This document shows positions 22,058 through 54,851 of a stretch of 63,796 nt of DNA, in pieces; position 1 is the first letter of the stretch, and the number at the start of each line of letters is the position of its first letter. The DNA is taken from contig NKIB01013142.1 in the NCBI GenBank assembly GCA_002256025.1, positions 1 to 63,796 on the forward strand, in the 5' to 3' direction. The notes beneath the pieces are model-generated. The model saw nothing but the letters and a program-made list of their open reading frames with translations, did no database searches and was not told where the DNA came from. This DNA is from Asterionella formosa. Lineage: Eukaryota. A program made the position numbers and the translations under genes.

Positions 22058-24967
22058 CTAACTATACACAACCTTTTGCATCAAAGAAGTCGATTCCTCC
22101 AATTCTTGTTGGAGCTGCAACCATTCTTCTTGTGAGACCTGCATACCACTCAAAACCCGGCCATATATTCTCGATACATCTGTCGACAAAACTGCGATAG
22201 CTGCAATTAATTCAGAAGGGGGGGAACACCCTTCTTCAATCACCAACGGGGTTCGGTCTGTTGAATTCGAATTTACTGAATGCCTTGAGATACTAGAATT
22301 CTTGACAGGCGCGGCAACAAATGAACGCCTGCCCTCTCGTTTCGACCGCATGGTCGTTGTACCCAGAGCCTCCGCTCTGTCATACGCTATTTGCTCATTT
22401 TCAGTAGTACTATCGTTGAGTCCAATAGAATAATTGGCCCTTCCTTCCACCGGCCCTTCTTTCCAACAGGACAGCTCCGAAATTGTTTCATTTCGTTTCA
22501 CTCCTTCCGCCATTCCATTATTTCGATTACCTTCGACTAGTTGCTCATCACCCTCAGTTTTTTCCTCGCGACCATTGATGGACGTCGTCATTTTGCGGTT
22601 AGCCATGTCTAACAGAACTGAATCTTCCTCTTGTCTTTTCACCTTGTCGTGCTTCTTCTTCCGATGTTCAGACATGATTTTGCTTACAATAATCTTTTCG
22701 CCACTCCAAATTAGTCTCAGTTTAGGAAGTATGAGACGAACCATCATGTTCAAATTGAAATTAAGGAAGATGATGACATGCATCAAAAATGGTACGTCGG
22801 GAGGGTTTTCCGGGCTGTTACTTACAATAACGACAGCAAATGAAAAAGTTGATACAAAGAGTGTAGTGATTAAACCGGCAATGACCGACGACGCCTCGTT
22901 GAACAAAGAAGGTAACTTGGACGAAATCCTGCCTTGCCACATGCAAGCAAACATTGCGCAAAAGGCAACAGCTGCTCCCACGAATGTGAAATACTGATCT
23001 GAAGCAGTTCCACATTCATAACGACCAATGGACTGTGAACTATTCAGATCAATCCACAGGTCAGGAGAGAACAGGACAAGACCAATGATCTGGACAATCA
23101 CTTGTGGCATGGTAACAGCTACAATTGAGATCCAAAGCTGGATCACGGAAAAATTCTTCTTCAGTTTTCGAACCTTGGTTTTGGTAAATTTGCGCTTGAA
23201 AAGTGTTTTGCCATGGCCACCCTCCGAGCTGCCATGTGATGGTGGTTGGCTGGCACTTGCCTGGTCGCAACTTGAGGTGGATGATCTGCTCCATTGTGCA
23301 GCAATCCATTGGCGCACATTTGCCTTCCTCTCTTTCTTCGTTTTGACAGTACTCCAGTTCATTAAAGATCCCATAATTGTGTTGATTCGCAACAAGCGAC
23401 TGAACACAATTGCGAGGACGAACTGTGTAGGGATTAACGTCATTGGATATTGTAGGATACAATACGTCTCCGAGGATGGCGAGAATAGGGCAGCGCTGGG
23501 AGTGGAAATGAGTGACGCACACTGAGCAATGATTAAGAAGCGTCCTTGAGACAGTTTCATAATTGGGTTGTCCCGGTGGACAATCGATAAGCCAAGTAGT
23601 AAAAGTTGTATCATCCCTGTCAGACCAATAAGAACATATGCAATGATTTCCGACGCTGATTGAACCTCTCGGATCTCAGGAGGCGGCTCAAATTCTAATG
23701 CTGCATGTTGAAGAACATTTGCCATATCAAATTTGAGCTGGACATCACTATTGTTCGCGAGAAAGAAGAGCAGAGAGGCTGTATCAACGTTGACATGGGA
23801 TTTGAATTAGACACACGAACAATTTGTATGGCGATAGCACAGCACTCGTTCCCCACTTACCAAGGGGAATATATGTTCCAGGCACGTGGACTGTTACGTG
23901 ATTGTCGACGTGTATTACGAACTTTGTTTGTGTTGGGTCCGTCGTCACCAAGTAGACCGATGAAGAAAGATTCTTATGATCTTCAATGTCAGTGTTATCC
24001 TTCTCCCGATGAGCGATCATGCCATCAACGACGATATCGTCATCAATTGAATTTTCCGTGATTGTGTATTCGTAATGATCTAGGTTGCTTTCTTCCTGAT
24101 CATTTATGGCAAGCCCTCGTAACCGTAGCCGCCTTCGGTTTCCACCAGTATTTCCGCTTCCATTGTTCTCTGCCGAGTTCTGATTCACCCCCCTTTCCAT
24201 TTTACGTTTTTCGAAGATATTAGCCATTGACTCCTGTGCTGATTTCTTCCTATTGGAATGATCTACAATCAAAGTCCGATTGACCCCCAGGGTGCTTGAT
24301 GTTGAATTCGAACCCGAAGAATTCATGCTCTGTTGAACACTTTTCAAAATATCATACGTAAACGGCGTGCAAAACGTCCCGTCAGTTGGACAGAACGATA
24401 TTGTTGCTTCTATTCCCATACTTCCATCTTCCGAGAAGAAGTACGCATCCGCTGCAAGCCCGAAGTGCTCCCGAATTTGGTCAAGATCGATCGTTGCCGT
24501 AATCAAGTAATGATAGCTCTGACCGGCCCGAAGAATGTCCCCATTCACGTATGCTGCTGGAGGATCGACCCGCAAATCGGTTCCATTTGGGCAAGCGTAT
24601 AGCCTCGTCATTGCACCCGCTAGGAAATCCGGAACCAGCCCGTTACTGAATGTCATGCCCTCCGCATTCGATGACGAGGAATTGGTAAGCGTTTCGTTCT
24701 GATAAGGACGAGCCGACCAACAGATAGGCTCCGCGCCAGCGGTGTTGTCATAGCCATCCGCAGTATATGAGCCACCCTCATCAATTGGTTTATCAACTAG
24801 TCCATGAACCTGGACGGCCAGAGGGGCTAATACTAGTAACGACACCACCAACAAAAAGTCATGGAGGGCCGATTCACGTCTTGGAATCCCCCGACGCTTG
24901 CGGGGACACTCGAATCGGTGAAGCTTATCGTTCTTATTTTTATTGTTCTTGTGGTTGTGGGTGATAA

Positions 24968-25740: not shown

Positions 25741-27266
25741 TGATAAACACATTGAGCAGTGCAGGAGAACATGCACGATTTGGTGTAAACATGAACTATT
25801 TTTTGTTGAGCATGGTAGATCCATGCCTACATGACCAAAGGTTTCAAGTAGAAAAGCTCTTGAGCTTGATGGTGGGCAAGCTAAAGCAGAAACTTTTCAG
25901 GAATGCCTCATGTATGACTACAACGATTTCGAAAATGTTGCTACTGTGCAATGGACTTCGATTTCAAATTCATCATGAATGAACTCAGCCACAATTACAA
26001 TGAGAATGGATGAAAAATTATTTAAATGTATACATTAATAAATTTATTCAAAAGAATCTTATTTATGTAAAGAAATTAACTTAAGCTAATATTATGTTTT
26101 ACTGGTAACTACAGGGGCTACCTCATGTAGTTTTAGGATGCATCACCCAGTCAGATTTTCGTTGCTAATTATTATGGAACAAAACGACAAAACCAAACTT
26201 TGTTTTGGCGTAGGTACCCTTGAAACAATGCTAACAGGACTGAAGACCCAAATGAAAATGCATTACATAGTAGCTCCATGCCCATATTCCAATAAGTTGC
26301 TTGCTCACCCAAACTTTTAGAGGATTCCATAATGAACACTTTGCATGTAGCAAGTTGCAGAAACCCAACTAATTCCCGAATAGTCATCATAATAATTCAT
26401 TGTAAAAGTAGTCCTATAAAAATATTTTACTTCTTTTCTCGAGATTTTGTCATCCTACGACGACAATGTTTAGGTTTTCCCAAAAATTGTTAGCATCAGT
26501 TTTCCATGTCTGTCGACCAAAACCAAAACCAAACCAAAATAAAATTATAATTTTTGAAATTGTTTTTGGCCCATTGTTAGTATCCATCTGCTTCACTCTT
26601 ACTCTACAGCCCAATAAGATACCCTCAACACTTTCATCTAGCTAGTATGAAGCATCTACCCAACAAGAAGCCACTTCCGGACATTCAGAATCTTAATCCA
26701 AACAACCAAATCTGATGAAATTTATTCTGTAGTTTTTGGCAAATTCTGTAGTGAGCCAGTGTCAAGTGTGAAAGAGAAGTGAAGCGGTGCCACTGTGGTT
26801 CAAAGCAATTGATGTGGTTTACCCTAAATGGACGACCTGTTAACACAATGTTATGTTCTCCTTGTTTCTGCTTGCTCTTGGATTCAGCACTGCTCAAAAC
26901 AGTCTTCTGTTTCTCCCAAGGTTGCTTTCAATCATGTTAGAGGTTTTTTTCAAACTATGATAATCTTATACTTTTCAAATGACGGGATTTAGTTAAATAT
27001 AAGATTTCAATAGGAGTTTCCCATTTGCAATCTCTTACCAGCACTTCCTTTTACCCTTAGTAGTATAGCTTGGAACCCCTCCCCCCACCAATTCTACAGA
27101 TGCAAACATTTTGTCAAAAACTCCAAATTGAGGAGAAGGCACCACAAGAAAAAATCTGGGTCAAGATCATTCTGACACACATGAATTCTCAAAATCATTC
27201 TTGAGTGAGTGTACTCAACATATTCATTCTCGAGTGAGTGTTCTCCTCATAGCTAATACCAATGGC

Positions 27267-30077
27267 TCAAAAGGAGTGAATTCTGTCAGGATGGTGGCCT
27301 AACTTGACAAGATTTGGTATGCATCCTTTCTCAAGCATCACAGGAGGTCCACACATGACATTCAACACATCATCGCTGGCTGGAAATAAATGTTCTTCCA
27401 TCAGCTCCTTGTTGATAAACCCAGTCGAATGCTCCCAATTGTGGGGCCATGAGTCAGAGAGAATGTAGTGGACCCTAAACTTGTTGAAAAAAATGTTTTG
27501 CCACTGGTCCAAGGCAGACCGTAGCATAATATCTGATTCTTGCCGACATGCGTAAATGAGGGTCATCTCAGTGTTATCCTCCAAACGACGTAAAATATGC
27601 GCAGCAATTTGCATAATGGGAGAAATTCCAGATCCACCCGCTATCATGTTTATTTTTGTGCAGTATCCATCATGACCTTCAATTGTGTATCGACCTCTAG
27701 TGACGTACTCAAATGATCCCACTGGTCCTCTCATTTTCAACATGTCACCTTCAATTAAGTTCGATAAGTACTGACTCATCTTGCCACCCTTTGGAAAGGT
27801 TGGCGTTGGCCGATATATCTTCACAACAAACTGTACTCGACCCAAGTCATGGTTTGAAGAGACTGGTGTGTATCGCCGATTCACTGCCACACCATTGATT
27901 TCTGCGGAAATCAAAATGTGCTTGCCAGTAGGAAGGCCAAGAACATGTTTGGGTGATTGCAGGGCAAAGTCTAGCAGTACGGAATCATCAGAAAGGACAA
28001 TCTTCTTTTGCAATCGAAATTCCATTGTTTTCTTGGGGTGCAATGCTATTGGTGATCCATGATCATCCAAATACTCGCCATGATCAGATGACATGCTCAT
28101 GGAGGAACAATTGGATACCACTGACCCTTCATCCGCTTCATCGACCAAATCTCCGATGTAATATCGCGACAGCATCTTGGTGGCTCGTTTCGAGTGAATT
28201 GCAATAAATTCGTCTGTTGCATCTTGCCCTCCATTGATAATTATACTTTCAATTCCACCAGGATGATATTGTAAATATTCTGTACAATCAAAGACTCGGT
28301 TACGAACAACGATCCAAACATCTCCATTGGTATTATGCTGTCCAACTTGAGTCATTGTAAATTTTTTAAATGGTCCATTTGGTACTGCTTCAATCGACAA
28401 GTTATATTCATCATCATCATCTTTGCTATTGAATTCTATCAATGGACCAAAGCCAGCTGAGTATAACTGATTGGCTGTAGAATTCATCCACCCACCAACA
28501 CCTGTGGGATGCTGAAAGTATACATTGAATTGATCCTTAGTAACACGAATCTTGTACACATGATTTGCAGCAACTCCGAGTATGTTCCATGTGGGCAACG
28601 TTGGCTGGACATGAAAGGCCTGATCCCAAGCTCGGCACCACAATTCCGTAGATCGTACGACTGTAAGGACAGGTACTTCTAGAGACCATAGTGTCCAACA
28701 CCAGTACTTGTCATGTAGGGTTGGTTGTTCTGGGCGACGGAGGTTGGCTAAATGCCAGCTGGTTCCACAATCCCAACTCACTTCTACTCGACTTACAGCA
28801 ACTCCACCGCCAGAAATGGCATAACCCGAAAGTTCCACCTTTTTATACATATTATGAACAATAGACCATGATTCCAAATGAGCTGGTGATATCATGGTCG
28901 AGTTGATGTTGACGAGTCTCTGTATATATTCTCGATTGTAAAAGTCCGTAATGGCCGATGATGTGAGTATGGTTGGCGGAAAGAGTAAATGTTCATGAAA
29001 ATGAAACGGTCCCTTGGGAGCATCAACAATGTTAATTTCTGTTAACCACTTGACTGAGTACCCAGCAACGCACCCAGGGACAATCAAGCGAACAGGATAT
29101 CCATGATCTGGTAGTAGTGGTTGTCCATTTGCCAAGTATGCCACAATAACATCATTTGCGTCATTCCATACATATGAGAATGGTAAATACTTGGTATACT
29201 TGACGACTCCCTTGTTGCATAATGTCTGTCCCATCATGTTTGGATTAGGTAGATCTTCCTTGCCCACGAATTCCACCCATTTATTTTGAAATGTTGCTAA
29301 CTGTAGTGGTGATTTGAAATCATTTCTCATCAACAGCGTCTTGACCAGAACTCCCTTATAGACAGCTGTCCCGACACCTCCAATGCCCCATCCAACCCCC
29401 AATGTTGATTGTATAGCATTAAATTCACTCCGTCTCAATGCAGCACTGACTAGCGTCACTGGCAATTCCCGGCAAGGCCGAATAGCAATCAAGGCATTCA
29501 TTGCGATATTATTGTTGCTGGTACTATTTTTATTGTTGTTGGTGGTGGTGTTGTGATTGATGTTTAGTACATGCGATTCCCAAGTACACTTTGGTGTAAC
29601 TCCATGATTCCTAACAAAGTGCAAGTGTTGTGGTGTTAAAAAGTCTTGCAGGTGTTCCTGTAACGGCAAACACGCATTCATGGGGTGTTTGCCAGTCAAT
29701 CGAACCAACCGTCCATCCCGTGGGATCCAATCGTCCGGGGTGTGAACATCTCGATAATCAATGGGCAGATCCCAAAATAATGTGGTTTTCTCTTCATCGT
29801 TATTGTCGTTGTTGCCACTTTTGGTTGAGAATGGTTTTTTGTGTTCTGATTGGAACGGCACAGGAAGGCTGTGGTCGTATGGTCCATACAAGCGCTCGAA
29901 TTTACTCAAGGCGCTTGATTGCTGTTGCTGTTCCAGCAGTAGGAGCTGCTCGTCTTCTGGAGTATCCCAATACCTGGCAGATGCTTTCAACGTTCCATAA
30001 CTACCACTGTTAGTAGTATTAGTAGTAATATTCAAAACATCAGTTGTCATGTTGTGCTTCAAATGGCTGATGAGCAT
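27267..30077 (-). CDS. NAD(P)H nitrate reductase-like flavo-hemoprotein, divergent paralog with Mo-ligand Cys replaced by Ser, 936 aa
   Basis: Full eukaryotic NR order: TPDDWIPRDGRLVRLTGKHP, HFVRNHG, PDHGYPVRLIVPG, dimerisation domain WCRAWD, cytochrome b5 (HPGG..FIAIHS), FAD domain (LGLPTGKHI, RRYTP, GKMSQYL), NAD domain (GGSGISP, CGPP, terminal F). Intronless, no stops. Confidence 0.93.
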   Translation of the reverse strand: MLISHLKHNMTTDVLNITTNTTNSGSYGTLKASARYWDTPEDEQLLLLEQQQQSSALSKFERLYGPYDHSLPVPFQSEHKKPFSTKSGNNDNNDEEKTTLFWDLPIDYRDVHTPDDWIPRDGRLVRLTGKHPMNACLPLQEHLQDFLTPQHLHFVRNHGVTPKCTWESHVLNINHNTTTNNNKNSTSNNNIAMNALIAIRPCRELPVTLVSAALRRSEFNAIQSTLGVGWGIGGVGTAVYKGVLVKTLLMRNDFKSPLQLATFQNKWVEFVGKEDLPNPNMMGQTLCNKGVVKYTKYLPFSYVWNDANDVIVAYLANGQPLLPDHGYPVRLIVPGCVAGYSVKWLTEINIVDAPKGPFHFHEHLLFPPTILTSSAITDFYNREYIQRLVNINSTMISPAHLESWSIVHNMYKKVELSGYAISGGGVAVSRVEVSWDCGTSWHLANLRRPEQPTLHDKYWCWTLWSLEVPVLTVVRSTELWCRAWDQAFHVQPTLPTWNILGVAANHVYKIRVTKDQFNVYFQHPTGVGGWMNSTANQLYSAGFGPLIEFNSKDDDDEYNLSIEAVPNGPFKKFTMTQVGQHNTNGDVWIVVRNRVFDCTEYLQYHPGGIESIIINGGQDATDEFIAIHSKRATKMLSRYYIGDLVDEADEGSVVSNCSSMSMSSDHGEYLDDHGSPIALHPKKTMEFRLQKKIVLSDDSVLLDFALQSPKHVLGLPTGKHILISAEINGVAVNRRYTPVSSNHDLGRVQFVVKIYRPTPTFPKGGKMSQYLSNLIEGDMLKMRGPVGSFEYVTRGRYTIEGHDGYCTKINMIAGGSGISPIMQIAAHILRRLEDNTEMTLIYACRQESDIMLRSALDQWQNIFFNKFRVHYILSDSWPHNWEHSTGFINKELMEEHLFPASDDVLNVMCGPPVMLEKGCIPNLVKLGHHPDRIHSF

Positions 30078-30599
30078 GTGTGTGCCACGCTCACCATGAT
30101 ATCAGTTCTTCTTGATGGCAACAAGGATACCGATATGTGTGGTACCTGGTAGTTAGAAACTGCTATGCATCATAATAATACCGACAATCATAATTGCATG
30201 GTGACGGAAGTTGTGGTGTCTGATGCTGGCAGAAGTGAAAGTTTAAATTGTCAAATGTGATGATGTGTCTGATAGTGTGGGCCAAATCCAAAGGGCACGT
30301 CATGGACATTGAAGAACATTAATGCAAAAAGTCGGGAACTTCTTGCATTTGCTGTCGTTGTTGCGAGGAGTGTGAGTGAGTTGATATATTATACCGTACA
30401 CCAAGCAACTTGCGGTCATTTTGCTTATATCAACAATTTAATCCTGGATAAAGACAGCTAAACCTTTAGTTAGGCAAAATTACCCCAGCAACTTGCAGGT
30501 ACTTGTGGTCGTGGCTGGCTGTAAGGGCCTTAAACCTCGCGGTAAACTGGGGAAGGTCCGGTTACCTAAGATATATAGCTTTGTCTTGTTCAGAAATAA

Positions 30600-45309: not shown

Positions 45310-48300
45310 ATGACAGATGCTCCAGTCTTCTTCGGAGACACGGGGACGGCGCGAGCCACTTCGTATCAATCGCCCCTCCAGGAAATATTGACGGATCTCA
45401 AGCGCAAGCATGTCGTGGCGGCAGCAGCCACTGGCAGCATGTCCTTCTGGGACTCGACCGACGCATGGAACTTACAACACAACGCTTGTAGCTGTGGTAC
45501 AACACCAAATATTGCTGTGGTGTGTTCCATTTGTGGAAGACGCAGCAATAGCAAGTCGTCTCATCGAACAGAGCGCCTCAGGGAACGAGAAGATGTTAGC
45601 AACCAACCGCCGCAACATGCACAAGCGTTGTTGCGTCGCACGCCGCATTTGCGACATGTTTCGAATGCATCCATTGATATGCAAGCGACACATAAGGGAA
45701 TATTGAACTTTATGCGCACAGATTCGTCGCAGCCACTAAATCTCGTAGATTACAGGACTTGTGTTGTTCGCGAACAAGCCAACCAACAAGCTGCCAGGGA
45801 ATTGGCGTCCTTTCTCTGGGTCCTGGCACATGAAATGTCACTCGACTCTTTCAGTCAAGTAGAATCTGCTGTATTTACTAAAATATTCCAGTTGGTGCAT
45901 TCGACACACACACGAATGGCGGGAGTGGCAGCCTTGGACGCCCTTATTGAAGCGCCCTCGGGCGACGAAGAGCAAAAGGCAATCAAGTTCGCAAACAATT
46001 TATCCAGCGGACTCCGAGCCAGCCAGGGAGATTACGAATTTTGGTCCAGTGTTAGCTGTGCACTTGGTCATATGGCCATGCGAGCAACCAATGTGGACTT
46101 TGTGGAATCTGAAATTGTGCGAGCCTTGGAGTGGATGAGGACTGATCGAAGTGATAGGAGGTTGGCGGCGACATTGACATTGAAGGAATTGGCAATTCAC
46201 GCGCCAACTGCCTTTTATAGCAAGACGAGTCAAGTAACGGGATCCAATGAATTTTTGGATCATATCTTTGCCGTTTTGAGTGATGTGCAGCCTATTGTAC
46301 GGGCATGTGCAGCAGACGCGCTCTCGCAATGTCTAAAAATTCTGGTTGATCGACACCAAACCTCCTTGACAGCTCTCCTTTGTCAAGTTTACTTTGGGAT
46401 GATGGAGGGGCTAGACCAAAGCATAGAACACACAGTGAAAAAGCAATCTCAAACGCAAATCATTAATGCAGAAGCCCGCTATCATGGATCATTGTTGGTG
46501 GTGGCCTCCATGTTGGAATATACTAGGGATTTTATGTTGCCTCGATATGATGAGGTTTGTGAATCCATACTTAAATTTACAAATCATCCCAAGGCATTAA
46601 TTAGATTGGAAGTAATTCGGCTCGTTCCTCGATTGGCCCGACGATTTCCAAGAGTGTTTGGTCGAAGGTACCTAGAGACCGCTCTCGTTTTCTTGATTCA
46701 CTCTGCTTCGAATCCAACACCTCCTCGAGTTGGGGTGGATATTCGCCCATCAGCATTTTGCGCGATTGGACATCTAATTTTGGCAATGAACTCGGAGAAG
46801 GAATTGATTGGAGGATCACCATCGCCCACTGTCACGATTATGAACCAACCAGATGTGCTTAACAAATCAAACTTGTTAATTCAAGTCTCGAAAACGGGGA
46901 TTATTTATAAAAAGTGCGGTGAGCTTTTTGAACTTGTGAAAGGAGCACTCAGACCTGGAAAACTTGGAACATCTAGTTCTGATATTCGTCGAACGGCCTT
47001 GCATTGCGCTGCAGATCTGGTGGAAGCTCTGGGGCCATTGGCAGATCCATATCTAAAAGAGCTAATAAATGATATGTTCACATCAGGACTCAGCGATGAT
47101 CTTATCAGTTGCTTGCAAGCAATTGCTACATCAGTCCCCTCCCAGCAGAGTGGTATCGAAGACAGACTCTTACAAGAAGTATCCCTTTGCCTTGCAGGGA
47201 CTCCAAATGCTGCTGATATATGTAATCCCTTGTCAGGGTATCATGTCACTGAAAGTTCGCTGTCAATGTCGGGTCGCCTGGAGACAATAGCAAAAGTCGT
47301 CCTTAGTCTACAAACACTTGGTTCGTTCGGAGATAGCGACGGAATGGTTGCCATCGAAGGAATTCGGCTCCCAATCCTCCTATTTGTACGTAAGGTTGCC
47401 GCGCATTACTTGCAGCACCCCTCAAGTCAGGTCCGCCGAGCTGCTGCCCTGACTTGTTGTAAGCTACTAATCCCGGTGCGCTTACCACCGATCGCTGATG
47501 GTGTGCCGCATGATGTTCAGCATGCTGCCATGAAACGTCGTCTCGGAATTCATTCTGGTCGCGTTGTGGAAGAAGTGCTTACCAAACTCATACAAGTTTC
47601 CGTGTCGGACCCTTCGCCGGTGGTTAGGCTGTGTGTGGTACGCGCTCTGGACGAACGCTATGACTACTTTTTGTGTCAAGCCCATCACCTTCAAGCAGTT
47701 TTCTTTATTCTTCAAGATGAAGCCTTGGCAACAAGAGCTGCTGGTCTCCAATTGTTGGGGAGACTCACAAGATTGAATCCAGCTCCGATTTTGCCTTTTA
47801 TGCGACAGTATTTAAAAGACCTTATCATTGAACTCAGGTACGGTGGTGACCATGGTCGAGTGCGGGAAGAAGCGACGCGTTTGCTAGTGGTGTATTTGAG
47901 AGCTGAGCCTTTCCGTCGATTGGTTCAGCCTGTTTTGCCTGCACTCGTTGATGCACTTCCCCTCGAGGGCGTTGCCCCGCGCCTAGCCTCAGTTGCACTT
48001 GAAGCACTTGGCGAGCTTGCTCGTGCATCACAGGCTTCTTTGAAGCCTTGGGTCAAGCTGATAGTTCCACATATATTAGAGACTATGCAAGACCAAAGCA
48101 GCGCGAGCAAACAGCGAACTAGTTTGCGAACGCTTGGGCAAATATCAGGGTCGACTGGATACGTAATAAAGCCGTATTTTGACTACCCCCAGCTTCTGTC
48201 GCAAGCGACCGATGTCCTGCCTGGCACAAAAAGGGCTCCATGGGCTTTGCGACGAGAAGTTATAAGAACTCTTGGAATTGTGGGTGCCTTGGATCCTGAC

Positions 48301-51300
48301 CAATATCATAATTTTGTTCCAAAGACCAGAAAAGGCGGGGCGGTTGGTGGAGTTTATTTTGTGGAGCGTACATCTGAAGGAGACCTTTCACCAGATACAG
48401 GCCAAGAAGGTACTGATTCGGTTTTTAAGGAGGGTTCGGCAGAGGAGTCGAGGTCACTCTCCAGTGCTATTAAGAGACTTCCCATCGACATCAAAGGGGC
48501 TGGATGGACGGAAGCAAAGGGGCTGTTAGCAGCTTCGACTTCCCCAAGTAAGCATACAAAAGAGAACGATGATGACATGCCAGCTCATCTTTACATGTAT
48601 GAGCAGTACGCGATGGTGGCTCAGCCTGTATCAAGGATATTGCCTCCGCGTCGAATGACTCCTTCTGACGACGATTTCTATCCAACTGTAGCAATACAGG
48701 CCCTTACTAGAATTTTCAAAGATCCGTCGCTAGCTGTACACCATGACATGGTAATGCAGGCGATCATGTTCATCTTCAACTTCCTCGGTCAAAAATGTGT
48801 TCCTTTCCTTGATAAGGTTGTTCCTCACATGCTGTATACAATTCGGACGTGTGGACCTTCCAATTTGCGAGAAGCGCTTTTGAAGCAAGTGGCCTCTCTA
48901 AGTGGAATTGTTCGCGAACATTTGCATCCTTATGCAGCTGAGATATTCAGCATCGTTGATACTTTCTGGGCAACTCGCCATCTTGGCACTATATTAAACC
49001 TAGTTTCTCGAATTGCAGCTGGAGTACCCGATGACTTCAGAATATACCTCCCCCAACTGATGACAAAGCTGTTAGCGAGTCTTGGGGAAATCCAAACTTC
49101 TGAATGGGTTTGGCCCCGAAGGCAAGAATCGGCTGGTTCATCTTCGGCTGAGGTCGAGAAGCTGGAGTTGGTTCTCACCAGTATAAGGACTCTGAGAACC
49201 GTCATTGGAGAATATCTCCACATTATTGTTCCCGCTCTCCTCAAGCTCGCTGACTCACTGTTAGCCCCTTCATCATTGTCCATTGGGACTACCATGACTC
49301 GCAACCATGTTACGATTATGACACTTCAGACATTGTCGCATATGTTGCAATATGAAAATTCTCGAGCTTCTGGTGGTGGGACTATGCCAATATTCATGCG
49401 GGATATACACACTGACTCTCTCCCTGCAGGTTGCTTGTTGCCGGCACGAGCTGTGCAGCCGTTAATTCGTTTCTTGAGTCCAGACACGAATTGCACTCGC
49501 ACAGTGGGATACGCCGTAGTTGAAACTATTTGCGTTTGCGTGCGCCAGATGGGGCCACAGAGGTGGAAGATGTATCACGATGTTGCTCGGGCAGCAATTT
49601 TGGTTTGGGAAGAACGAATGGGGGGCCACGAAAGAATCATTTCTGAATCGCAAGACGAGGTCGCAGAAGCGAAGTCAAATGCGAGCCAGAGCGGGTTGGC
49701 ACTTTATGACAGGACATTAACTGAACTGGACTCGCCACCTAAGCCAGTCTTTGCTTTGTCTCTCGGGGCTAGACATGAATCATTCTTGGAGGTGTTACCT
49801 AATCGAAAGGTCAGCGAGTCAAATTTTGGGGAGTATAATGGCGGCGACGATAGTTCCCTCGACCAGGGCGACTTCCAGAACAATCCTTCCATCCAACCTA
49901 TTTTGAACCAAACAAGCAAACATAAGGTAAACCAAATCAGCCTGCAGAAAGCATGGGATGTCTCCCAAAAAGCCTCCCGAGAAGATTGGGATGACTGGAT
50001 GCGTCGCTTTGGTATCCAGCTCTTGAAAGAATCTCCTTCTCCTGCCCTACGGGCTACAGCAAGTCTTGCTCATGCGTATCAGCCCCTTGCCAGAGAACTT
50101 TTTAGCGCCGCATTTGTGTGCTGCTGGGAAGAATTAAGTGACCAGTTCAAAGGGAACTTAGTGCAAGCATTAGAATCTGCGTTCGTTGCTGACGTTTCTC
50201 CTGAAATATTGCAGACTCTTTTGAATCTTGTAAGTTGGAGTTCACTACTCTGAAATCTTAAGTATTTTTGTATACCTAACTTCCTTTCTCCCCTAGGCCG
50301 AATTCATGGAACACGATGGTGTAGCCAGTGATTTACCAATTGATATTTCGAATCTGGCAGAACTTGCACTCAAGTGTCGAGCTTACGCTAAGGCACTTCA
50401 CTACAAAGAACGCGAGTACATCAAGGGCGGGACAGGAGCATGTGGTTCATGCGTGTCACTACTTATTAGTATAAACAAGAAGCTTGATTTGCCCGAAGCA
50501 GGACTCGGTGTACTCAAGACTGTCCGTCTTCCTCGGGACGGACTTTCTATAGGACCCTTGCTTCGTCATGACCAAGGTGATGAGATGAAGTACAGCGTCG
50601 TATCAAGTACGGCGAATGTCATTGCCGATGAAAAGGGCATAACTGAATTGGACGAAATCCACGAGTCGTGGCTGGCAAAACTTGGCTCTTGGTCAGAGGC
50701 ATTGACAATTTATGAGCAAAAACTTGGCCAGAACCCTTATGATTTTGATGCAATCTTGGGATGCATGCGATGCTTGGATGCGTCTGGTGAATGGCAAGCT
50801 GTCTTAGACCTAGCGGACACAAATTGGCCTATTTTCTCTGGAGCGGGTCCCAACTCTGGACATACTATTACTCCCCGTTCCTTCAGTAATGTGTACCTCA
50901 TGCCTAAAAACAAACGGAAACTACTGAAATTTAGTGCTCAAGCTGCCTGGAGACTTGGCCAGTGGGAGGAGCTCGAAAAGTATGCTGCTGAGCTGGTGCA
51001 AGGTCATTCGGGTCACGGGCAAGCTAATTCTCCAGCCACAAATAGGATTGGCCAAATTAGCGACCACCGAGACACATCATCAGTTCCTGGGATTGATTTT
51101 GATGGTGCGTTCTATACCGCCGTCCTTAACATTCACAGAAAGGAGTGGTCTTTGGCCGCTGATGCAATCGACGAAGCACGGAAGTCAATGGACAGCAGGT
51201 TTACAGCGTTGATGGCAGAATCCTATAAAAGGGCTTATCCCAGCATGGTTACTGCTCAAACATTGGCAGAAATGGAAGAAATTATCGAGTTCAGAAAACT

Positions 51301-54300
51301 CGAAAGTAGATCGATCGCGAGTGGCCAGCGCCATCCATTGAATCGTCCAGACAAAGAAGAAGCAAGGAGAAGATTGCTGTCGACATGGAGAGAACGCTTG
51401 GCAGGCTGCCGTTTTGACTCTGATGTGCACGCATCTATTATGGCAGTTCGTTCTCTTGTAATGGGACCCACCGACGCTGTGGAAGCAACCTTGACATTGA
51501 GTGACTTATGTAGACAAGGACAACGATACAAGCTCGCTGAACGAGTCCTTTTGGACCCTCTGGCTGAGTTAGGAGCAAATCTTAGTGGCCCAGTATTTGG
51601 ATTTGGTCTTCCCGACGCCCTTGGTCTTGGTTTGCCTAGGGTCGAAAATTCAATCTCTGGCAATTTGATAGTGAAGCGACTAGTTGCCGGAAATACGAAT
51701 GATTTCTTTCCCCAGTACAGCGACATGCATAAGCAATGTTCCAGCCAAATACTTCAGCAAGCAGGGGGACTAGACCGGCTTCAGATACAGCACGAATTGT
51801 ACTTTGCTTATGTAAAGCACCTTTGGTCTATGGATCAGCGTGGCGAGGCTTCACATCGACTCGAGAAACTATGCAATGTAGTCGACATGATTGCTCATTG
51901 CGAAGGAAGATCTGAAAGCCTTCTTCAGGTTTCGTGCTGGATTGAACTCGGGGACTACAAGCTCGAAGAATCGGCATCTCCTGGATCACATATATCACTG
52001 CAATTACAGGTCGCTGTTTTATCTGCATTCAGAAGAGCAATATCTGTTCCAAACTGTGGATACAAAGCCTGGCACAACTGGGCACTATTGAATTTCCGTA
52101 TCACCCAGCAAATGAACGAAAGCGAGGAAGGTTCTACTGTACGACAGCGTAATCTATCTTCTTCTGACGCCTTGAGAAATCATGTCATCGAAGCTGTCAA
52201 AGGCTTTACCAGCGCCATCAGTTTAGGAACAAAGCGATGGAGTGCATCGGTTCAGCAAGATCTTCTTAATTTGCTAACCTGTCTCTTCAAGTATGGAGAT
52301 CTTCAAGATGTGTCGCTGACAATCGAGCTTGGAATAGGAATTATCACTCTAGAGGCTTGGCTAGGCGTACTGCCCCAGCTATTGGCAAGAATCCAAATTC
52401 AACATATTGCTATTCGTTCTGTTCTGCATTCACTTCTTAAACGACTTGGCGAGAAACATCCACAGGCCCTCATGTATCCCTTATCTGTTTTACTAAAAAG
52501 CCCAGTTACCGAGCGGAAGGTGGCTGCTGAGAGTTTAATGACTTCATTGAAAGCTCATTCTAGCTCCTTAGTTGAAGAAGCTTTAATGGTGTCATCTGAG
52601 TTGATAAGAGTTGCAATTCTCTGGCTTGAAACATGGCATGAAGGCTTGGAGGATGCATCGCGCCTGTATTACGGTGACGGTAATGTCGCTGGGATGCTTG
52701 ATTTGCTATTACCGCTACACGAAACACTTGAGAAGGGAGCCGAAACACAGAAGGAACATGAGTTTGAAAAGAGCTTTGGCCTTGACCTGGCTGAGGCTCA
52801 TGCGTACGTCCGTGAGTACATTCGCCTAGTTACAATAAATGGTGCTGATATTCCCCACCAGGGTGCTCAAGCGATCGACGTGATTGATGGTAACCCTCAA
52901 CAAAGCGACGAGGCCGAAACTGCAATGAACAAAGCCTGGGACATTTATTACACAGTTTTTAGACGGATCAATAAGCAACTACCAGCATTGACAAAATTGG
53001 AATTGAATCAATGCTCCCCCGCGTTATTTCAAGCTTGGAATCTAGAATTGGGAGTCCCAGGATCCTATAGAGTTGACGGTAGCTACATTAAGATTGAATC
53101 GTTCATCCCCTCTGTTCAAGTTATTACAAGCAAGCAACGCCCAAGAAAGGTTACTGTTAGGGGAAATGATGGACGAGATTACGTATTTTTGCTGAAAGGC
53201 CACGAAGATTTACGGCAGGATGAAAGAGTGATGCAGCTCTTTGGCCTGGTCAATGCGTTGTTGGCGCGAGATCGGCAAACAAAAATGTATGATTTGAATA
53301 TTCAGAGGTACGTTCTTGATGTCATGTACATTGGCTGAAAATATTTTGTGATGATTAAATGAATACTAACCTTTCCTTTTAATCAGGTATGCAATTTCGC
53401 CACTTTCACACAACTGTGGAGTGGTTGGCTGGGTACCGCACTGTGATACTCTTCACAGTCTTGTTCGAGATTATCGTCAGCAGAAGAAAGTCCCTCTCAA
53501 TATGGAAAATCGAGAGATGCTTACCATTGCTCCCGACTATGACATGCTTACGGTAATGCAAAAGGTGGAAGTATTTACTGATGCGTTGCGTCGGACCACT
53601 GGCAATGGATACGACTTGTACGAAATACTTTGGCTGAAGAGTACAAACAGTGAAGAATGGCTAGAAAGGAGAACAAAGTACATCAGAAGTTTGGCGGTGA
53701 TGAGGTGCGATACCCGATGATTGCTATTATTATCAATTTTGAAACTTTGTTTTTGCTAACAATAATTGTCCAACATTTGCAGTATGGTTGGATATATCTT
53801 GGGGCTTGGTGATCGCCATCCCTCCAACTTAACATTGGACCAACTGAGTGGTCGAGTGCTACATATTGACTTTGGCGATTGCTTCGAGGTGGCGATGAAA
53901 CGAGATAAATACCCTGAAATGATTCCATTCAGACTAACGCGAATGCTAATAAAAGCAATGGAAGTGTCCGGTATCGAAGGCAGTTACCGAAGCACATGTC
54001 TGCGAACTATGACTGTCCTTCGTGACAGTCGTGATTCCCTTGTTGCAATGCTAGAAGCCTTTGTGTATGATCCATTGATAAGCTGGAGATTGGCGGGACT
54101 ATCAGACAGTGATACCTCACCAGGTGAAGCATTTGATGGAGCTCCTAACTTTTCGTCCAGTGGAAGTCTAGGAAACGATGATTCATTTTCCAACGATGTG
54201 CTAGCAGGTGGTAGTGAGGGAGCACTCATTGACATGTCACTGAGCGTCCTTCATGAATCCATCTCTGAAGGAAATGATGAGGAGGACAATGATGGTGGTG

Positions 54301-54851
54301 AACCAAGGCCAAGGGGACGCCCCATTCGATCTATGTTGATGACGGGATCGTCGTCGCTCGCCGAACGTATCCACGCTGATTCAATGTCTGAACGTAACCC
54401 TGTGTCTCAAGGAGGAAGTATGAACGCTGCTCGAGCCCGGTCTCTTCAAATATTTTCTTCGATTCAAGCGCTGGCAGCCAACTTGAGTGCTTCGTCGAGA
54501 ATTGCCAGTGTAGTTGGTGACAATGTAGTAAGCAATGGCCACCACATCATGGCCGCGGCGGCAAGGGGTTCATCATTGGCGCAGTCTCGTATTGCCATTC
54601 GTCAACGCGAATCGATGAGTGTGTTGGAAAATGCGAATGGCGGTGGTGGTGCGCATGAAGAAGCATTGAATGAAAAGGCTCTCAAAGTCATTCGCCGAGT
54701 GCAAGATAAATTGAGTGGAACAGATTTTCCAGATGCACAGCACGATAGTAATCCATTGGATGTTTCAGACCAAGTGCAACGTCTCATCATCCAAGCCACC
54801 AGCTCCGAAAGTCTATGCCAACTATACATTGGTTGGTGTGCCTTCTGGTAA
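45310..54851 (+). CDS. TOR: Target of rapamycin kinase, ~3105 aa, 4 exons
   Basis: Exons 45310-50229, 50297-53307, 53387-53704 and 53783-54851. Splicing restores [20 protein letters not shown] and [26 protein letters not shown] repeats, FAT, FRB ([18 protein letters not shown]), kinase ([24 protein letters not shown]) and FATC ([12 protein letters not shown]) all present. Confidence 0.98.

Follow-up and report, generated by a model that had tools for sequence, protein, structure and literature searches.

Gene content and domain architecture

In this study, we analysed a 63,796-nt stretch of DNA from the diatom Asterionella formosa (contig NKIB01013142.1 of assembly GCA_002256025.1, positions 1 to 63,796; hereafter the window), in which a gene resembling nitrate reductase (NR) lies at 27267..30077 on the (-) strand. 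The coding sequence (CDS), named P0001, is complete and intronless, and both the list of open reading frames (ORFs) and the translation give a frame that is open across all 936 codons. Five Pfam domains, all above the gathering score, follow one another in the order of eukaryotic NAD(P)H:nitrate reductase. A first-pass annotation, in which a model read the letters alone, had quoted a set of motifs and an unbroken 936-codon frame, and every one of these was located in the translation. The gene and its domains are as follows.

27267..30077, (-) strand: NR-like CDS, 936 amino acids (aa) plus stop
29013..29606, (-) strand: Oxidored_molyb, the domain binding the molybdenum cofactor (Moco), residues 158-355 (Pfam E 3.3e-29)
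29496..29564, (-) strand: Asn/Thr-rich low-complexity insert NINHNTTTNNNKNSTSNNNIAMN, residues 172-194, within the Moco domain, species-specific
28536..28925, (-) strand: Mo-co_dimer, residues 385-514 (Pfam E 2.7e-34)
28146..28358, (-) strand: Cyt-b5, residues 574-644 (Pfam E 6.5e-23), with His605 (HPGG) and His628 (AIHS)
27705..28019, (-) strand: FAD_binding_6, residues 687-791 (Pfam E 5.7e-29), with RRYTP and GKMS
27330..27647, (-) strand: NAD_binding_1, residues 811-916 (Pfam E 2.9e-23), with GGSGISP and CGPP
27270-27272, (-) strand: terminal Phe936, after the NAD(P)H-binding domain

The reductase half carries all the parts expected of an electron-transfer chain. Both axial His ligands of cytochrome b5 (H605 and H628) are present, and residues 681-936 match NADH-cytochrome b5 reductase (1i7p, E 4.9e-61), with FAD_binding_6 and NAD_binding_1 showing the RxYTPxS, GxxS, GGxGxxP and CGPP motifs of that module and a C-terminal aromatic residue. 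The motifs lie at residues 605-608 (HPGG), 626-629 (AIHS), 734-738 (RRYTP), 765-768 (GKMS), 814-820 (GGSGISP), 909-912 (CGPP) and 936 (F). These positions, and the nearly unchanged b5 and FAD columns described below, bear out the earlier claim that the protein has retained its b5 haem ligands and its FAD and NADH motifs. In the Mo half, HPMNAC is found at residues 131-136, PVTLVSAALRR at 206-216, AGYSVKWL at 338-345 and PFHFHEH at 357-363.

Loss of the Mo-ligating Cys and remodelling of the pocket

The window protein belongs to a group of close relatives, here called clade A, which consists of three clusters at 90% identity: the window protein (P0001 with P0002, which is 99% identical and comes from the same species), P0003 and P0004. 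P0003 is 68% identical to P0001 in the Mo part and 71% overall, and P0004 is 64% and 67% identical, respectively; below them there is a gap in identity down to the canonical diatom NRs at 41-46%. P0003 and P0004 share SAALRR, HPMNA, AGYSVKWL, GPF[HY]FHEH and N[IT]LGVA[AV]NH with P0001, and this agreement among the sequences points to a small conserved clade and not to an oddity of a single genome. For DNA of the orthologues, a profile scan of metagenome contigs matched 19 stretches, none of which was confirmed. The positions of the Mo pocket that are changed or kept are listed below, with residue numbers of the chicken sulfite oxidase (SO) chain as in the literature and with Pichia angusta NR numbers obtained by adding 10 to the chain index of 2bih, which yields the positions that we take to be R89, C139, R144, W158, N272 and M427.

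29445..29447, (-) strand: Ser211, codon AGT, instead of the Mo-ligating Cys (structure alignments, translation)
29436..29441, (-) strand: Ala213-Leu214, canonical Gly-Asn of CAGNRR; AAA and LLL in the three clade members
29610..29612, (-) strand: Arg156, kept; column of Pichia NR Arg89 and chicken SO Arg138
29430..29432, (-) strand: Arg216, kept; column of Pichia NR Arg144 and chicken SO Arg190
29388..29390, (-) strand: Trp230, kept; column of Pichia NR Trp158 and chicken SO Trp204
29070..29072, (-) strand: Cys336, clade-conserved, canonical Tyr (CCC vs Y), just upstream of AGYSVKW
29058..29060, (-) strand: Tyr340, replacing the Arg of GGRMIKW; chicken SO Arg298 column, with Tyr also in the related proteins P0154 and P0299
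28989..28991, (-) strand: His363, replacing the NR-specific Asn (HHH vs N); column of Pichia Asn272 and chicken SO Tyr322
28572..28580, (-) strand: Leu500-Gly-Val502, replacing Met-Gly-Met; columns of chicken SO Arg450/Val452 and Pichia Thr425/Met427

The central change is the replacement of the Mo-ligating Cys, which is regarded as invariant in eukaryotic NR (EUKNR), by Ser211. In a HMMER alignment, the column of Ser211 holds Cys in Pichia angusta NR (2bih, E 3.7e-52; pvtmvCagnrr), and it corresponds to residue 185 of chicken SO, for which the best-matching entry is itself a C185S mutant (3hbg). The substitution proposed from the letters alone is confirmed by these alignments, and so is the drift of the other Moco-domain signatures: the matching columns in canonical NRs of diatoms hold PVTLVCAGNRR, HPFNVE, GGRMIKWL and HYHYHDN, against HPMNAC, AGYSVKWL and PFHFHEH here. 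Of 110 such canonical NRs, 97% or more have Gly and Asn at the columns of residues 213-214. Cys is also found in 117 of the 120 best word-index matches, the three with Ser being those of clade A. When an exhaustive HMMER search was reduced to 150 representatives of 50%-identity clusters, 134 spanned the site, with Cys in 127 and another residue in 7.

The rest of the pocket has been altered selectively. For example, Arg156, Arg216 and Trp230 align with Pichia R89, R144 and W158 and are invariant in clade A; we take these three columns to have an anion-binding role. The segments FVRNHG, PDHGYPxRL and SVKWL are kept in the Mo half as well. At the columns of Pichia Asn272 and Met427, which presumably are NR-specific and set NR apart from SO, all three clade members have H363 and V502, with L500 nearby. 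In a docking study on rice NR, Cys192, Arg197, Asn331, Met471 and Met473 surround the substrate (PMC6341063). At the level of sequence, the residues taken to bind oxyanions in general are thus kept, and the thiolate ligand and the residues specific to NR have been lost.

Divergence along the protein

As a reference set for locating the changes, we took the canonical diatom NRs among P0006-P0121 with a length of 850 aa or more, 110 in number. A column was called canonical-invariant at 97% or more in this set, and changed when it was altered in all three clade members. By these definitions, the changed columns among the invariant ones are as follows.

Moco domain: 28 of 97
Link, residues 356-384, carrying an active-site loop: 11 of 20
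Dimer domain: 17 of 50
b5 domain: 1 of 27
FAD domain: 4 of 48
NAD domain: 9 of 46

P0005 (883 aa, from Logan) was excluded from the reference set, since it lacks b5: it is a canonical, Cys-bearing sequence without a Cyt-b5 Pfam domain and with a gap across the b5 columns, and it may be either an artefact of gene model or assembly or a real b5-less NR.

The same distribution is seen in the identities of P0001 to canonical NR, which are 0.45 in the Moco domain (0.80 among canonical NRs), 0.62 in b5 (0.79) and 0.65 in FAD (0.79). At 40 of the 56 changed Mo, link and dimer columns, one identical derived residue is carried by all three members. When canonical pairs were matched to the clade pairs by FAD/NAD divergence, the Mo plus dimer identities within the clade (0.70, 0.70 and 0.88) stood against 0.80 (standard deviation, sd, 0.04), 0.79 (sd 0.03) and 0.86 (sd 0.04). 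The pattern in these comparisons is that of a rapid series of changes along the stem, mostly within the Mo half, followed by renewed and only slightly relaxed constraint, and it reads as neofunctionalisation and not as decay.

Two alternatives can be weighed at this point. The first is that the protein is still an assimilatory nitrate reductase, in which a Ser ligand is compensated by the neighbouring substitutions. Such an enzyme would explain the full NR architecture, the retained Arg/Arg/Trp and the automatic name given to the relatives in databases, "nitrate reductase (NAD(P)H)". However, the Cys is found in 117/117 canonical diatom matches and is called invariant across all SOX and NR sequences in a review (PMC10574614), the Asn and Met that distinguish NR have been replaced too, and the Mo-domain identity to canonical diatom NR has fallen to the value given above, so that we regard this alternative as highly improbable.

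The second is that the protein serves as a regulatory or sensory subunit, either as a heterodimer with the true NR through Mo-co_dimer or by binding nitrate, nitrite or Moco without turnover, and would in this way modulate the activity of NR or report the N or Mo status of the cell. The dimerisation domain is retained, as are the anion-binding Arg, Arg and Trp without the catalytic ligand, and pseudoenzyme paralogues often act in this way. On the other hand, the 17 of 50 invariant columns changed in the dimer domain more likely separate the protein from canonical NR, and a pure regulator would not need an NADH-FAD-haem chain as fully conserved as the b5 (1/27) and FAD (4/48) columns indicate. 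We therefore consider a regulatory role improbable.

Read support, transcription and selection

The Ser codon is not a matter of one assembly. Ser211 is spanned by contigs of four runs, three of RNA, each from a different study (X1, X4 and X13), and one of DNA (X7), and no difference falls at 29445-29447 among those listed, with 12 less-supported differences somewhere in the 5 kb outside that list. In addition, PVTLVSAALRR is read in 21/21 clade sequences from JGI, Logan and ENA assemblies. The first-pass annotation had considered a read error unlikely on account of the flanking change from GN to AL and had proposed a check of the AGT codon in reads and RNA; the cover of the codon by contigs of four runs and the agreement of the 21 clade sequences now provide that check, and a read error is rejected.

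The gene was present in 20 of the 24 listed sequencing-run rows, with 8 on record as RNA and 13 studies represented; apart from one sample labelled "algae metagenome", the runs bearing it are metagenomes and metatranscriptomes of lakes or other fresh water. A 3634-nt contig of the polyA RNA run X1 is collinear with 26556-30188 with 0 differences and 0 gaps, and because it is collinear without a gap, the gene has no intron. This contig gives the minimal extent of the transcript:

26556..30188, (-) strand: minimal transcript, reaching about 111 nt upstream of the ATG and 711 nt downstream of the stop

Contigs of two further RNA studies cover 26878-30138 and 27904-30209, and near the 5' side the RNA contigs of the three studies end at 30138, 30188 and 30209-30356. 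RNA cover is absent past 30475, whereas the DNA run X7 covers all 30 bins. Other cluster members also lie on contigs of 3.2-3.9 kb, which is transcript-sized. Contigs of this kind show presence in RNA libraries and give neither strand nor level, and their ends are a weak hint of transcript ends. Within these terms, the NR-like gene is transcribed, as polyA RNA contigs from several studies contain it and the flanks are silent.

Two flanking stretches were noticed in the same comparison. At 26556-27266, where the polyA RNA contig extends 711 nt beyond the stop, there is no ORF of at least 90 aa, and the stretch is either a long 3' untranslated region or an adjoining transcript. Upstream of the gene, 30308-30474 shows very high DNA-run depth, many loose ends and a 37-nt skip, and looks like a dispersed repeat. 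Within the gene, the Asn/Thr-rich insert at residues 172-194 has 13 residues that are missing from P0003 and P0004; in run X13 it is shortened in frame by 6 nt, and a large spike of DNA depth there reflects similar simple sequence elsewhere.

Variation among strains indicates that the protein is maintained. Against other strains, 20 synonymous and 12 nonsynonymous population variants were found over 615.7 synonymous and 2192.3 nonsynonymous sites, giving a ratio of nonsynonymous to synonymous polymorphism (pN/pS) of 0.168 (binomial p 9e-7). All four indels in the CDS (3, 6, 9 and +3 nt) are in frame, and the two just upstream are of 16 and 1 nt. The gene is under purifying selection.

A young pseudogene would show frame disruption, neutral substitution or a lack of transcript, and none of these was found. 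The loss of a residue considered essential and the species-specific low-complexity insert are what a young pseudogene, or an artefact of sequencing or assembly, might display. However, the open frame, the codon seen in four runs, Ser in 21/21 clade sequences, the conserved orthologues, the pN/pS of 0.168 and transcription all speak against both, and we give the two together a negligible probability. The young pseudogene in particular is ruled out by the open frame, the pN/pS, the in-frame indels, the RNA contigs and the conserved orthologues.

Predicted fold

An AlphaFold2 (AF2) model of residues 100-540, built from 53 sequences, had a mean predicted local distance difference test (pLDDT) score of 85.9 and a predicted TM-score (pTM) of 0.88, with low confidence mostly in the Asn-rich insert and in surface loops. 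In a Foldseek search with this model, the best match was 2bih (E 6.5e-40, TMq 0.85), followed by chicken SO including its C185S and C185A mutants, and then by plant SO and bacterial sulfite dehydrogenases. Among the structural matches were 3r18 and 3r19, double and triple mutants of SO with altered activity and substrate affinity; their entry titles name no residues, and we assume that the mutated positions are Y322, R450 and V452. By the model, the SO fold, with its Moco-binding and Ig-like dimer domains, is predicted to be intact, cofactor binding being a property that is not readable from the sequence or the AF2 model.

A sister lineage and recurrent loss of the Cys

Clade A makes up one entry in the library of 50% representatives, and the next match to it is a canonical NR at 45%. 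Its closest relatives in the trees, here called clade B, are P0154 (846 aa) and P0299 (697 aa), which come from metagenome assemblies and are 68% identical to each other. Clade B is sister to clade A with a support by the Shimodaira-Hasegawa-like approximate likelihood ratio test (SH-aLRT) of 100 in full-length trees and 83 in the C-terminal tree. Ser211, Leu214 (Phe in P0299), Trp267, Ala338, Tyr340 and Ser341 are common to the two clades. The clade B proteins have no Cyt-b5 domain, and they keep the SO fold as well as the domains for FAD and NAD. Arg216, Trp230 and the 357-363 loop are lost in both; P0154 also lacks HPxN and Arg156, a stretch that is absent from the sequence of P0299. Judged from what clade B has kept, the constant part of the family would therefore be the reductase half and the fold, and not the catalytic Mo site.

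The trees were computed under LG+G4 with a quick search, a setting more prone to long-branch artefacts than a mixture model, first from 74 full-length rows and then from 65 rows, both full length and C-terminal, with ten long-branch rows dropped and P0299 added. They place A and B together outside all 40 canonical diatom NRs sampled and inside a diatom-only group, with support of 96-100. In the approximately unbiased (AU) test, a grouping of A and B with a pennate subset was not rejected (p 0.47 C-terminal, p 0.28 full length). An "ancient, pre-diatom-radiation paralogue" was considered as a description and is not claimed here, as the AU test allows this grouping. In the strict sense of the word, the gene is a candidate paralogue.

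Besides clades A and B, five representatives have no Mo-ligating Cys.

P0248: SSANRR at the site; the cluster includes the red alga Compsopogon caeruleus
P0250: SGGNRA at the site; Agarophyton chilense CAN8067576.1, a red alga; no b5 domain
P0259: DSGNRS at the site; MMETSP transcripts; no b5 domain
P0162: SAGNRG at the site; 15 members; b5 kept
P0243: Arg at the site; 269 members; b5 kept

Across otherwise NR-like proteins, the Mo ligand has therefore been lost on several occasions.

Gene neighbourhood

Apart from the NR-like gene, no nitrate-assimilation genes were found within the window, which contains genes for an ARM-repeat protein, a 7tm_3 receptor, ATP10, an SBF transporter and TOR, among others, and which by this content is nuclear DNA of a eukaryote. 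Two of them are given here as observations in their own right.

45310-54851, (+) strand: TOR kinase, in three consecutive ORFs of 1647 aa (HEAT/mTOR_dom), 1010 aa (FAT/FRB/kinase start) and 355 aa (kinase/FATC)
22058-23725, (-) strand: 555-aa ORF for a class-C G-protein-coupled receptor (7tm_3, E 4.2e-16), two genes from the NR-like gene

The three TOR ORFs are presumably split by short introns. For the first of them, the N-terminal 1647 aa, the nearest named relatives are all diatoms (Cylindrotheca 54%, Bacillariaceae metagenome-assembled genomes 51-53%, Pseudo-nitzschia 46%, Phaeodactylum 46% and Thalassiosira pseudonana 45%), and one further relative reaches 72%; together with the freshwater origin of the runs, this fits a freshwater diatom.

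Comparison with known systems

The closest known proteins are the canonical diatom NRs, such as those of Cylindrotheca fusiformis (Q4PRJ9, P0015), Cyclotella, Thalassiosira and Ditylum. These are nearest in every tree, have 46-50% overall identity and are like the window protein in domain order, length, hinges, b5 ligands, FAD/NADH motifs and terminal Phe. They differ from it at the changes of Cys to Ser, GN to AL, R to Y340, N to H363 and MGM to LGV at 500-502; in all, clade A departs from them at 56 canonical-invariant Mo, link and dimer columns and forms a separate branch. With the Cys ligand and the NR-specific pocket residues both replaced, the protein is best classed, on sequence grounds, as an NR-derived variant and not as a catalytic NR. 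In the full-text articles that were searched, no Cys-less NR is described from diatoms or from other algae.

The change at the Mo ligand has a counterpart in engineered SO mutants (chicken C185S, 3hbg and 3hbp; chicken C185A, 3hbq; rat and human C207S), which have the same fold and are altered at the same column. In contrast to those laboratory point changes of an oxidase, the change here is natural, is accompanied by many co-fixed pocket changes and is conserved across species. For C207S SO, bands assigned to the Mo-S(Cys) bond are missing according to a review that covers spectroscopy (PMC9370002).

For the use of the reductase half, the Chlamydomonas system offers an analogy. The Chlamydomonas NR:NOFNiR pair makes nitric oxide (NO) without the NR Mo centre, through an NAD(P)H-to-haem chain, and NO synthesis is still supported by an NR mutant whose Moco domain is defective and whose diaphorase is intact (PMC6473468). 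The donation of electrons by Chlamydomonas NR to ARC/NOFNiR and truncated haemoglobin would thus resemble the use of the NAD(P)H-FAD-haem part proposed below, but there it is the moonlighting of a single true NR, whereas here it would be the task of a dedicated paralogue.

Other divergent lineages in the NR family have been described. The nearest published case is a paralogue of fungal euknr, found in the clade of Aspergillus nidulans and passed on by transfer to Acanthamoeba, whose function is uncertain and for which there is indirect evidence against an NR role (PMC6400420). It likewise stands apart from bona fide NR but is an independent lineage. The raphidophyte NR2-2/2HbN of Heterosigma and Chattonella is a stramenopile NR with altered modules and a link to NO metabolism (PMC6128913, PMC9837059); it gains a haemoglobin domain and remains an NR, whereas the window protein has acquired no additional domain and is without the Mo ligand.

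Proposed function

The protein is very probably functional, a descendant of assimilatory NR that is maintained by selection and is not a standard NR. Cys-to-Ser mutants of SO and NR are nearly inactive, and because of this, of the invariance of the Cys in the family and of the absence of Mo-S(Cys) features in C207S, we infer that the Mo site reduces nitrate very poorly or not at all. We propose that the protein is an electron donor running from NAD(P)H through FAD to haem, whose remodelled Mo domain no longer reduces nitrate, and we place the probability of this reading at roughly 0.45. In this proposal, a cytosolic homodimer would take hydride from NAD(P)H onto FAD, and FAD would hand single electrons to the b5 haem. 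Since the pocket has lost its thiolate ligand and the residues specific to NR, the electrons would bypass nitrate reduction at Mo and would exit at the haem, where a partner protein or some other acceptor would take them up, as in a donor of the diaphorase type. The Mo/dimer half would be kept for folding, dimerisation or partner docking, as a scaffold that binds a cofactor or an anion. The roles suggested at first (donor, heterodimer partner or sensor) have thus gained a firm ground in so far as the protein is intact, transcribed and conserved, has lost its Mo ligand and has kept its electron chain; the choice of any one of these roles is still an inference.

Several points weigh against the electron-donor proposal. 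The pocket of clade A is not drifting: Arg/Arg/Trp, FVRNHG, PDHGYPxRL and SVKWL do not vary among its three members and the new residues have become fixed, which fits a still-working site as well as a scaffold. The Mo plus dimer identity within the clade is, moreover, only slightly below that of matched canonical NR pairs. In clade B, the lack of b5 means that a haem-mediated donor would not exist there, and a function common to the whole family may therefore not involve haem at all. Finally, the partner is hypothetical, and for the effect of Cys-to-Ser on activity the support consists, besides the mutant literature, of Protein Data Bank (PDB) titles (3hbg, 3hbp) and of spectroscopy in a review.

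The conserved remodelled pocket argues against a merely dead Mo domain, and it brings in the main rival explanation, namely a Mo/pterin enzyme with new chemistry. In such an enzyme, Moco would be held by a Ser211 alkoxide, by His363, by Cys336 or by no protein ligand, and electrons from NAD(P)H, passed on by FAD and haem, would reduce a substrate other than nitrate; a different oxyanion, nitrite (with NO as product) or a compound oxygenated at N would be candidates. The electron chain is retained with all five modules and the hinge regions, Arg156, Arg216, Trp230 and the pocket segments are invariant in clade A, and S211, A213, L214, C336, Y340, H363, L500 and V502 are identical in the three orthologues, as would follow from a burst and then constraint. 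In addition, because structures of C185S and C185A SO have been solved (3hbg, 3hbp and 3hbq), one of them with sulfite at the active site, a Cys-less protein of the SO fold can fold and crystallise. However, we know of no natural Cys-less enzyme of the SO family, and none was found in our literature searches; the near inactivity of the Cys-to-Ser mutants also counts against the idea, and clade B shares the change of Cys to Ser and yet has lost b5 and pocket residues, which suggests an ancestral novelty other than a new Mo reaction. We regard new chemistry as possible but unlikely. A broader form of it, that clade A is the first natural SO-fold enzyme to work without the Cys thiolate and forms, with the b5-less clade B and the independent Cys-less NR-like proteins of red algae and other protists, a recurrent and so far unrecognised class of repurposed NR in algae, is doubtful and put forward as speculation.

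Significance

The electron-donor proposal and its alternatives bear on the NR family in several ways. The Mo-ligating Cys has been treated as a defining feature of NR and SO; here, a natural lineage has replaced it, rebuilt the pocket and been kept under selection, which offers a natural experiment on the role of the thiolate ligand. In diatoms, moreover, not every environmental or genomic "nitrate reductase" call is an NR, which matters wherever NR transcripts in metatranscriptomes of lakes and oceans are taken to indicate the use of nitrate. NO-related partners such as ARC/NOFNiR have been proposed to require a dedicated donor of electrons, and the protein would be a candidate for this role if the proposed function holds. 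In addition, the graded series from canonical NR through clade A to the b5-less clade B, together with the independent losses of the Cys, makes the path from an enzyme to a repurposed protein testable.

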